A stretch of 64,000 nt of DNA, taken from NCBI RefSeq assembly GCF_044324785.1, contig NZ_CP172127.1; one strand, written 5' to 3'. Shown piece by piece: positions 49,451 through 62,247 of the stretch. The DNA comes from Escherichia coli. GTDB lineage: Bacteria > Pseudomonadota > Gammaproteobacteria > Enterobacterales > Enterobacteriaceae. The position numbers were made by a program, and so were the translations under genes. Each line of letters begins with the position of its first letter. Within the stretch, counting starts at the first letter, position 1. The notes below the pieces were generated by a model. That model did no database searches. It was given only the letters and a program-made list of their open reading frames with translations, and was not told the DNA's origin.

Positions 49451-49706
49451 CTTTTAATTCCTTCATGACAGGTAATGTAAGGTACGCTATGACAATACCA
49501 CTTAATAATACCTTTTAAATACCTTTGCGGTGAAAACTTGACCGTGCTAACATTTTTTTTGATGAATCGAGCCAACAGAAAACGCTGAAAAAACATCCAA
49601 AAGATGGAAAAACTCGCCCGTAACGACCAGGATTATGATTGCCCGCAAAAGGCGGGCCAGGACAATCCATAGCCGATATCCAATCGGAATTTACGGGAGC
49701 ATAGTA

Positions 49707-57659: not shown

Positions 57660-58433
57660 ATGAATTCATTCGAGCGAAGGAATAAGATCATCCAATTAGT
57701 GAATGAACAGGGAACCGTGCTTGTTCAGGATCTGGCGGGAGTATTTGCTGCCTCGGAAGCGACAATCCGTGCCGATTTGCGCTTTCTCGAACAAAAAGGC
57801 GTGGTTACGCGCTTTCATGGCGGTGCGGCGAAAATAATGTCCGGTAATAGTGAAACCGAGACCCAGGAAGTCGGGTTTAAAGAGCGATTTCAGCTCGCCA
57901 GCGCGCCGAAAAACAGAATAGCGCAGGCGGCAGTCAAAATGATCCACGAAGGGATGACCGTTATTCTCGACAGCGGAAGTACGACAATGCTTATCGCCGA
58001 AGGATTAATGACCGCCAAAAATATCACGGTGATTACCAACAGTCTCCCGGCGGCGTTTGCCCTTTCCGAAAATAAAGACATTACTCTGGTCGTCTGTGGT
58101 GGCACGGTCCGCCATAAAACGCGCTCGATGCATGGTTCCATTGCCGAGCGTTCATTGCAGGATATTAATGCCGATTTAATGTTTGTCGGTGCTGATGGTA
58201 TTGATGCGGTTAATGGTATTACGACCTTTAATGAAGGTTATTCTATTAGCGGTGCGATGGTCACAGCCGCTAATAAAGTGATTGCCGTTCTCGATTCATC
58301 GAAATTTAACCGTCGCGGTTTTAATCAGGTACTGCCAATCGAAAAAATTGACATTATTATTACCGATGATGCTGTGTCAGAGGTGGATAAACTGGCATTG
58401 CAGAAGACACGGGTAAAATTAATTACGGTGTAG
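57660..58433 (+). CDS. gatR: DeoR-family repressor of the gat operon, uninterrupted
   Basis: 257 aa from MNSFERRNKIIQLVNEQGTVLVQDLAGVFAASEATIRADLRFLEQKG (DeoR HTH) with C-terminal sugar-phosphate-binding domain. Confidence 0.85.
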   Translation: MNSFERRNKIIQLVNEQGTVLVQDLAGVFAASEATIRADLRFLEQKGVVTRFHGGAAKIMSGNSETETQEVGFKERFQLASAPKNRIAQAAVKMIHEGMTVILDSGSTTMLIAEGLMTAKNITVITNSLPAAFALSENKDITLVVCGGTVRHKTRSMHGSIAERSLQDINADLMFVGADGIDAVNGITTFNEGYSISGAMVTAANKVIAVLDSSKFNRRGFNQVLPIEKIDIIITDDAVSEVDKLALQKTRVKLITV

Positions 58434-60316: not shown

Positions 60317-60343
60317 AAAAAATAAGCCCGTGTAAGGGAGATT
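60317..60343. other. Candidate P2-type attachment-site core (attL) at chromosome-prophage junction
   Basis: aaaaaataagcccgtgtaagggagatt, 80 bp beyond the 3' end of the integrase gene; matches my recollection of the 27-bp P2 att core. Confidence 0.5.
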
Positions 60344-60422
60344 TAGGGTGTCACCAGTAGGGGCTTTCAACGGTACAATGCGGGTTTGAGCGGCATAAAT
60401 TACCACTGAAAGCCCTTAAACG

Positions 60423-61436
60423 TTACTCTACTGTGGACACTGTGTGGACACTCTCGGCTTCAGTACCACCTCTTAGCGGATTAAGAGAAATGGCGTCCTG
60501 AAGGTACTCTGGCGCAAAATGAGCGTAAACCATAGTTTGCTCAATCCGCGTGTGACCTAGTATCCGTTGTAGCGTGATAATACTTCCTCCATTAATCATG
60601 AAATGAGTGGCAAAGCTGTGCCTTAGTGCATGTGTGGCTTGCCCCGTTGGCAAATCCGGTTTTATTGCTTTCATTGTTCGTCTGAAGCGAGGGTAATCAG
60701 CATCAGGGAATAAAAAACCTCGTTTGTTATCCGCGATCATTTTGGCAACAGCCTCTGAGATCGGGACGGTGCGTGGTTTGTTTGTTTTCGTTTTAACAAA
60801 CGTGACGCGGTTATGGATGATATTTTCTGCTTTCAAACGAGCTGCTTCTCCCCAACGTGCTCCTGTACTCAGGCAAAGAATCGCAATCTTTTTATTGTCG
60901 CCGTCAAGTGCTGCAAGCAGTAAGGCAATTTCTTCCTGTGTGAGATAGCCTGTTTCTGGTTTTTCCTCCTTAAGCCTCTTTGTCCCTCTGATAGGGTGCT
61001 CACCAAAGAATAACTCCGCTTCAATCAGGGCTGTAAACATGCCGCTAATACATGTTAAATCACGATTGATACTCGAAGGTTTAATACCCTGACTTCTTCG
61101 GGTGGCGCAGTACTGGCTGATAAGGGATTTCGTGATTTGAAATGCGCATGGGTCATTCGTTATTTTTGTGAAGATTTCAATTTTTCCAAGATTAGATTTC
61201 CCATGCTCTTCGTGTTTACCCTTTAAATCCCACCAGATCTGTGTCAGTTCCGACAGACGTCGTTTGTCTGTTGGTTTTGATAGCCATTCTTTATTGTGGT
61301 GGTTGTACAACGTGTATTTTTCGAAAGCGACAGCTTCGCTTTTCTTATCAAACTTCCTACGGATGCGTTTTCCGTTACGTCCAGTAGGGCGGATGTCCAC
61401 TTCATATCGACCATCATCGAGTTTTTTGATTGCCAT
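60423..61436 (-). CDS. int: P2-type tyrosine integrase
   Basis: 337 aa; C-terminal catalytic region with R...HxLRH...Y (HALRHSFATHFMINGGSIITLQRILGHTRIEQTMVYAHF). Confidence 0.9.
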   Translation of the reverse strand: MAIKKLDDGRYEVDIRPTGRNGKRIRRKFDKKSEAVAFEKYTLYNHHNKEWLSKPTDKRRLSELTQIWWDLKGKHEEHGKSNLGKIEIFTKITNDPCAFQITKSLISQYCATRRSQGIKPSSINRDLTCISGMFTALIEAELFFGEHPIRGTKRLKEEKPETGYLTQEEIALLLAALDGDNKKIAILCLSTGARWGEAARLKAENIIHNRVTFVKTKTNKPRTVPISEAVAKMIADNKRGFLFPDADYPRFRRTMKAIKPDLPTGQATHALRHSFATHFMINGGSIITLQRILGHTRIEQTMVYAHFAPEYLQDAISLNPLRGGTEAESVHTVSTVE

Positions 61437-61550: not shown

Positions 61551-61850
61551 TTAACCAGTCTTTTGACCGGAGTGGGGCGACGTTGTTTCGTTTTGCCCAA
61601 AGTGTGCGAGAGCGGGCGCAATTTGCCCGGCTTCTGGAGCTACCTGATCAGTCATGAACCACAAAGTATATTTAGTAAATCTGGGATGTTGTAAGACCTT
61701 CATTATGGCTTCAACTCCAGCGTTTTTTGACCGGCTCTCATAGCTCGAAAGTGAGCTGTAGGCTACACCAGTTAATTCACTGAATTCTTTACGGTTTAAC
61801 CTTTCAGATTCACGGATTAGCTTCAACTTCTCCGAAACGTCTATTGACAT
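61551..61850 (-). CDS. C: P2-type immunity repressor C
   Basis: 99 aa from internal ATG at 61850 (MSIDVSEKLKLIRESERLNRKEFSELTGVAYSS..., HTH), preceded by GGAGT; track ORF starts 72 nt upstream. Confidence 0.8.
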   Translation of the reverse strand: MSIDVSEKLKLIRESERLNRKEFSELTGVAYSSLSSYESRSKNAGVEAIMKVLQHPRFTKYTLWFMTDQVAPEAGQIAPALAHFGQNETTSPHSGQKTG

Positions 61851-61928
61851 AATTACTCCGATTGCGTAATTTCTTGCTGATAGTGTGAAATGTTGTGCTT
61901 CTGGAGTTATCCTTTTAGGCAATAATTA

Positions 61929-61946
61929 GCCATTAGGAGCCATTAG
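61929..61946. promoter_or_regulatory. Direct 8-bp repeats in the prophage lysis/lysogeny switch region (candidate repressor operator half-sites)
   Basis: gccattag at 61929-61936 and 61939-61946, 10-bp periodicity, between C and cox starts. Confidence 0.4.
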
Positions 61947-61971
61947 AAGCACTAAGGGAGAATCGTAGCAG

Positions 61972-62247
61972 ATGAATAGACAGCTTGTAAGCGTGACTGA
62001 TGCCGTGCCTTATCAGGAGTTTGCAAAACTCATTGGTAAAACTCCAAGAGCTGTAAGGGGCATGATTGAGAAAGGGAAATTACCAGTTATTGAGATTACT
62101 GACCCTCAGTCAGTATCGGGGCGTGCTGGTGAATATTGGGTATACCTTCCGGCATGGAATAACGGACTAAAACTGGCTTATGAAAGCCGTCCTAAAGAGA
62201 TTCGTGACGGCTGGTTGATGTGGTTAGGTCTCGGTGAACCACGTTAA
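61972..62247 (+). CDS. cox: P2 Cox-like excisionase/repressor of Pc
   Basis: 91 aa; position divergent from C. Confidence 0.8.
   Translation: MNRQLVSVTDAVPYQEFAKLIGKTPRAVRGMIEKGKLPVIEITDPQSVSGRAGEYWVYLPAWNNGLKLAYESRPKEIRDGWLMWLGLGEPR

Follow-up and report, generated by a model that had tools for sequence, protein, structure and literature searches.

The direct repeats in front of the cox gene of this P2-type prophage are most likely part of a predicted Cox-binding array over the promoter Pc. They comprise the motif gccattag at positions 61929-61936 and 61939-61946 of the 64-kb stretch of Escherichia coli DNA analysed here (the window), in the 121-bp gap between the divergent genes C and cox. 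A sequence-only reading had reported them at exactly these coordinates, and had proposed that they were operator half-sites for the immunity repressor or Cox and that their sequence would define the immunity specificity of the prophage. Protein-binding sites were the most likely interpretation, with Cox as the best candidate on the grounds of positional homology, phasing, and conservation; the repressor half of the proposal did not hold, given the spacing and position of the repeats and their conservation despite differing C proteins. The proposed role in immunity was contradicted by the constancy of the array across switch types with differing C halves and operators, and by a separate operator-like pair, 26 bp apart, at the −35 hexamer of the promoter Pe. 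We infer Cox binding, the exact register of the boxes, and the position of Pc from the sequence.

Gene content and left junction of the prophage

By homology, the locus is the lysis/lysogeny switch of a P2-type prophage, which bears out its earlier designation as a prophage switch region: a P2-type integrase, C, and Cox were recognised by homology (Table 1), in the P2-type gene order int-C-cox. The genes C and cox are divergent, yet P2 homology indicates that Pe and Pc, their promoters, point towards each other within the spacer. The C protein is 65% (64.6%) identical to P2 C, with 45% identity in the N-terminal 58 aa (the DNA-binding half) and 93% in the C-terminal 41 aa. Cox is 84% identical to P2 Cox and carries E33. 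Its recognition-helix region reads KTPRAVRGMIEK, against KSTGAVRRMIDK in P2, and differs at four positions (24, 25, 26, and 30), with T24-P25-R26 and G30 in place of the S24-T25-G26 and R30 of P2; the specificity of Cox may have shifted with these four differences. Over the whole of the 821 bp surrounding the switch, the identity is 99.9% with Escherichia phage vB_EcoM-720R8 and 76.8% with phage P2. The core 211 bp of the switch were found at an identity of at least 95% in 348 of the 5426 complete E. coli genomes (~6%), and the exact C and the exact Cox proteins each occurred in more than 1000 contigs.

At the left junction of the prophage (60317-60457), the attL core, the Cox site, and the Int P' arm repeats were all 100% identical to P2 attP; the host side carries yegR, yegS, and the gat genes of E. 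coli. Because the P2 att module is fully conserved at this junction, a heteroimmune C module appears to have been joined here to a P2 integration module. Provided that the prophage is able to excise, its Cox must recognise P2-type boxes, since its att Cox site does not differ from that of P2; in line with this, the Cox protein of P2 Hy dis is reported to complement a P2 cox mutant (PMC3936717).

Table 1. Features of the switch and the left junction, with positions in the window.
Feature	Position	Strand	Size, sequence or basis
attL core	starts ~60317		from 60317 onward 100% identical to P2 attP core
attL Cox-binding site (P' side), second predicted Cox target	60360-60433		100% identical to annotated P2 attP Cox site
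P' arm Int sites	~60431-60457		TGTGGACACTGTGTGGACAC; 100% identical to P2 attP; repeat at 11-bp offset
P2-type integrase (int)	60423-61436	-	ORF list, homology search
C immunity repressor	61551-61850	-	99 aa; BLASTP, HTH_3, PDB 2XCJ/2L49 (E 2.5e-39)
P2 Hy dis-specific primer A3-44	61800-61815	+	CCTTTCAGATTCACGG; exact 16-nt match; primer from PMC1904268
Putative C operator half-site	61828-61835	+	TTCTCCGA; inside C coding sequence
Putative Pe	61844-61872	+	-35 TTGACA (61844-49), 17-nt spacer, -10 TAATTT (61867-72)
C-cox spacer	61851-61971		121 bp
Putative C operator half-site	61854-61861	+	TACTCCGA; between Pe -35 and -10; overlaps C ribosome-binding site on the other strand
Predicted Cox-binding array	61913-61961	+	four, possibly five, same-strand boxes, 10-bp period
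Candidate box B1	61913-21	+	TTTTAGGCA; consensus scan
Putative Pc -10	61922-61927	-	AATTAT on minus strand; homologous to annotated P2 Pc -10 TATAAT
Candidate box B2	61923-31	+	TAATTAGCC; consensus scan
Exact repeat copies	61928-61946	+	AGCCATTAG; each = 3' end of a box + 1-nt spacer + 5' end of the next box
Candidate box B3	61933-41	+	TTAGGAGCC; consensus scan
Putative Pc -35	~61942-61947		P2 Pc -35 mapped by alignment; inside the repeats
Candidate box B4	61943-51	+	TTAGAAGCA; consensus scan
Weak candidate box B5	61953-61	+	TAAGGGAGA; overlaps cox ribosome-binding site; may not be a box
Cox	61972-62247	+	91 aa; Phage_Cox PF10743 (E 1.7e-42), PDB 4LHF (E 6e-51), full-length

The phased repeat and the predicted Cox boxes

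Read directly from the window, the exact repeat is gccattag plus one more base, with copies of AGCCATTAG at 61928-61936 and 61938-61946. If each unit may contain one mismatch, the repeat grows to 2.3 copies of a 10-mer, AGCCATTAGG AGCCATTAGA AGC (61928-61950). This 10-bp repeat was derived by script and was not listed by a general repeat search. No other exact repeat of at least 9 nt has an offset of 10 bp anywhere in the 64-kb window; two were present at 11 bp, one of them being the arm-site repeat for Int in this prophage. When the 121-bp spacer was simulated 200,000 times with a first-order Markov model, a run of at least 9 nt at an offset of 10 or 11 arose with a frequency of 0.0014. In the host DNA, AATACCTTT is repeated at an 11-bp offset (49507-49526) and is one of the three exact repeats of at least 9 nt found at 10-11 bp. 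A recent slippage duplication of 10 bp was considered as the origin of the repeat in the spacer and was rejected, as the array keeps the register seen in P2 and in Klebsiella phages, with no 10-bp indel.

The boxes bound by P2 Cox follow the consensus TTAAA(G/C)NC(A/C), with starts 10-11 bp apart and at least six boxes per site, and overlap the −10 and −35 hexamers of Pc (PMC3936717, PMC5009727). P2 Cox assembles into a filament that has one protomer for each turn of the DNA and wraps ~70 bp (PMC3936717). A scan with the consensus gave four clear boxes in front of cox, starting at 61913, 61923, 61933, and 61943, and a weak fifth, a number below the six of the P2 sites. The window boxes match 4-6 of the 8 specified consensus positions, compared to 5-8 for the P2 boxes at homologous positions. 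In this register, the gccattag copies are the junctions of three adjacent boxes. The array aligns with P2 775-823, where a scan with the published consensus placed plus-strand cox-boxes at 776, 786, and 795; the gccattag copies themselves align with the P2 sequence GACATTAA ACGCAATTCA, a stretch lying partly on and partly between the annotated hexamers of Pc (the −10, TATAAT on the minus strand, and the −35). By its position relative to these annotated hexamers, the array overlaps both the −10 and the −35 of Pc. The homologous region of P2 is an experimentally footprinted Cox site (PMC3936717).

A perfect 8-nt inverted repeat, GTGCTTCT (61895-61902) and AGAAGCAC (61945-61952), brackets boxes B1-B3 in the cox leader. 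A conserved RNA hairpin formed from its two arms was considered and rejected, because the left arm varies among copies of the switch without a compensating change in the right arm.

Conservation among and within switch types

Scanning viral contigs with the window Cox yielded 80 loci, which together with P2 gave ten switch types. Among these, Cox was 84-89% identical to that of the window, while the N-terminal halves of C were 45-76% identical and each type had its own direct repeats on the Pe side, all of them differing. The phased array in the 60 bp before cox was kept in all ten. Its invariant or near-invariant alignment cores were A.TA (columns 27-30), C-A-T-T (columns 36-39), and C.ATT (columns 45-49), i.e., three cores at 10-bp steps, and the most conserved core across the types was CATT(A) at the box junction, not TTAAA. 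Mean pairwise identity was 54% in the Pe-side half of the spacer vs. 66% in the cox-side half. Across these alignments the array is seen to track the conserved Cox, not the variable C. The sequence-only reading had named a lack of conservation in related prophages as grounds for refutation; the phased array was conserved both in the ten types and in the copies of the window type described below, with box sequences that differed from those of P2.

One of the loci, L081 (IMG/VR UViG_2639762989_000002), carries at 679-800 P2-type operators, with GTGTTTAGAT present three times at 22-bp spacing. It has a P2-like N-terminal half of C, yet a non-P2 recognition helix in Cox (KTPAAVRG), and so appears to illustrate clearly that the C/operator module and the Cox/box module have been exchanged independently of each other.

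A 10-mer matrix was trained on the nine other switch types only, leaving out the window type. Its best phased array in the 64 kb was at 61922, with a three-box score of 24.6 vs. 18.2 for the next and a four-box score of 27.9 vs. 23.6. The runner-up among four-box matches, at 58223, falls within coding DNA of the host (yegS/gat region) and is probably a chance match. Single-box matches were common in AT-rich host DNA, so a single-box scan is not specific. The att site was weakly enriched in single-box hits, with 4 in the top 0.8% within 74 bp vs. ~1.1 expected. It was not among the top phased arrays of the 64-kb scan, as some of its boxes point one way and some the other.

Within the switch type of the window, 44 copies representing 20 haplotypes were compared. 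The array was invariant at all of its 57 positions, whereas elsewhere in the spacer 11 of 55 positions varied (Fisher p = 2e-4). The conservation of the array may be partly due to the overlapping Pc hexamers and cox ribosome-binding site. A hypervariable patch at 61877-61897 varied at 10 of its 21 positions, mostly by transitions shuffled into many combinations; variable positions numbered 3 of 300 in C and 10 of 276 in cox (patch vs. coding sequence, Fisher p = 2e-10). Situated immediately after the Pe −10 and before the putative Pc start, the patch falls where the convergent transcripts from Pe and Pc should overlap. It could reflect relaxed constraint, a mutational hotspot caused by transcription collisions, or tuning of promoter interference.

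Putative C operator and immunity type

The −35 hexamer of Pe overlaps the start codon of C, the same as in P2, and its sequence TTGACA is unchanged in the P2 alignment and stands at the same position in nearly all related loci; the region of P2 O1/O2, unlike the hexamer, is not conserved in that alignment. A simple sigma-70 consensus scan of 61700-62100 returned no promoter at its threshold, and Pe and Pc were therefore placed by homology to P2 alone. Published C operators of the P2 family consist of two half-sites 22-34 bp apart (22, 26, and 34), which flank the −10 or the −35 of Pe (PMC1904268). In P2 Hy dis the operator is a pair of direct half-sites of 8 bp each, placed 26 bp apart so that the Pe −35 lies between them, and one of the pair carries a natural point mutation (PMC1904268, PMC2995052). 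In the window, the pair TTCTCCGA/TACTCCGA, also 26 bp apart, was the only direct repeat matching at 7 of 8 positions that flanked the Pe −35 at an offset of 18-40 bp. Applied to P2 and W-phi, the same repeat search picked out their published operators (GTTTAGAT, 22 bp, and a 10-mer, 34 bp, respectively) on the Pe side and never in the array, from which the method appears sound. We infer that immunity specificity is set by the N-terminal half of C together with these 26-bp-spaced half-sites, not by the gccattag repeats.

Several features were shared with P2 Hy dis. Primer A3-44, used to amplify the P2 Hy dis operator (PMC1904268), matches the window exactly and was absent from P2 even when 3 mismatches were allowed. 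The putative half-sites are 8 bp long, 26 bp apart, flank the Pe −35, and include one natural mismatch, and Cox carries Glu33 as that of Hy dis does. The identity of C to P2 C (64.6%) and to W-phi C (49.5%) compares with published values for Hy dis of 63 and 44%, respectively. A difference is that the window Cox has Thr24-Pro25, compared to Thr25 for Hy dis Cox (PMC3936717). In that study T25 is listed as conserved between P2 and Hy dis, and T25 and R30 are implicated in function (PMC3936717); either its numbering is off by one or the window Cox is not identical to Hy dis Cox. A sequence-cluster look-up of C and Cox returned generic names only, with no Hy dis label. The immunity type may be P2 Hy dis or a very close relative.

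Alternative explanations for the repeats

Two circumstances favour taking the repeats as half-sites of a C operator, and hence as immunity determinants: they lie in the C-cox spacer, and the C proteins of P2-like phages recognise direct, not inverted, repeats (PMC2995052). When they were compared with the P2 and W-phi operators, as the sequence-only reading had suggested, their geometry was unlike that of C operators, and they aligned with the P2 cox-boxes instead. The units are 10 bp apart vs. the published spacings of 22, 26, and 34 bp (PMC1904268), and they stand 55-75 bp downstream of the Pe −10 (61867-72) instead of flanking the −10 or −35 of Pe. A Hy dis-like 26-bp pair is, moreover, present at the Pe −35, and the array is common to phages with different DNA-binding halves of C, including L081 with its P2-type operators. 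We regard a C operator at the repeats as extremely improbable.

It is also conceivable that the spacer holds no dedicated site, and that the Pc hexamers, the cox leader or ribosome-binding site, or AT-rich phased curvature account for what is seen, with the match between the two 9-mers being fortuitous. The array does, by homology, overlap the two Pc hexamers and the Shine-Dalgarno sequence of cox, the consensus matches are moderate, and single-box matches are frequent in the window. However, a strict 10-bp spacing of three to four conserved cores is more than two hexamers ~17 bp apart can explain; the exact repeat has a chance of ~0.0014, the array was the top phased array in 64 kb for an independently trained matrix, and the homologous region of P2 is a footprinted Cox site (PMC3936717). 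The absence of a dedicated site is thus considered unlikely. A Cox array shared with a second factor, be it a host nucleoid protein or C itself spreading from Pe at high concentration, would draw on the observation that P2 Cox spreads towards Pe at high concentration, from which occupancy of the spacer would depend on concentration (PMC3936717); such sharing seems very unlikely here. The preferred reading remains a Cox-binding array over Pc.

Proposed regulation of the switch

Under the preferred reading, Pe would fire rightward into cox, and Cox, a small winged-helix protein, would bind the phased boxes cooperatively, with one protomer per DNA turn. The DNA would wrap around the Cox filament so that the −10 and −35 of Pc are occluded. 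As Pc would be the leftward promoter of C and int, its occlusion would switch off the synthesis of repressor and integrase and lead to lytic commitment, while Cox would also act at the att site (60360-60433) and direct excision. Conversely, C made from Pc would bind the half-sites at the Pe −35 (61828-35 and 61854-61) and switch off Pe.

A tentative and rather doubtful extension of this scheme concerns Cox proteins with the helix KTP(R/A)AV(R/K)G, found in the window prophage and in relatives from Klebsiella and other Enterobacteriaceae. These may read a different core, approximately (G/C)C(C/A)ATTA(A/G), with a strict 10-bp period, and the Cox filament might then nucleate with high affinity at the two perfect tandem units, so that the shut-off of Pc in this immunity type would be sharper than in P2. 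Separately, and equally speculatively, the patch at 61877-61897 could tune promoter interference.

The main value of these results lies in a correct assignment of parts, separating immunity elements from Cox elements, and they have little meaning beyond annotation. The comparison of ten types points to the phased CATTA cores as the conserved part of Cox sites and could be used to refine the cox-box consensus.

Comparison with known systems

Helically phased Cox sites over Pc, the P2 Pe-Pc switch, and the Hy dis immunity type are already known and have been biochemically characterised. Binding of P2 Cox to the cox-boxes over Pc was reportedly studied by Saha et al., and the developmental switch of P2 Hy dis is said to have been the subject of work by Renberg-Eriksson et al. 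in 2001 (Virology), with its kinetics covered in PMC1904268. The closest characterised parallel to the present locus is the Pe-Pc switch of P2 (Berntsson et al., 2013, PMC3936717), with which it shares the int-C-cox order, the Pe −35 over the C start, a Cox of 84% identity, and an att Cox site of 100% identity. The two arrays also agree in strand, in their 10-bp phasing, and in where they stand with respect to the Pc hexamers and the cox ATG. The two loci differ in the boxes themselves, TATAAGACA and TTAAACGCA in P2 vs. TTAGGAGCC and TTAGAAGCA in the window, where the two adjacent units are nearly identical; in the N-terminal half of C and the operators, which in the window are of another immunity type; and in the Cox helix at positions 24, 25, 26, and 30.

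W-phi Cox and 186 Apl offer a wider parallel: each is a small recombination directionality factor that also serves as the repressor on the lytic side, and binds direct repeats between face-to-face early promoters as well as at att. In phage 186 the Apl sites are one helical turn apart (PMC7498355); Apl differs in that it belongs to the 186-type CI/Apl module. W-phi Cox recognises a different, 12-nt direct repeat (PMC5009727). It is 43% identical to the window Cox, and the W-phi repeat CCTAGAA(A/G)GGAC was found at a 20-bp offset in L004, the W-phi spacer.
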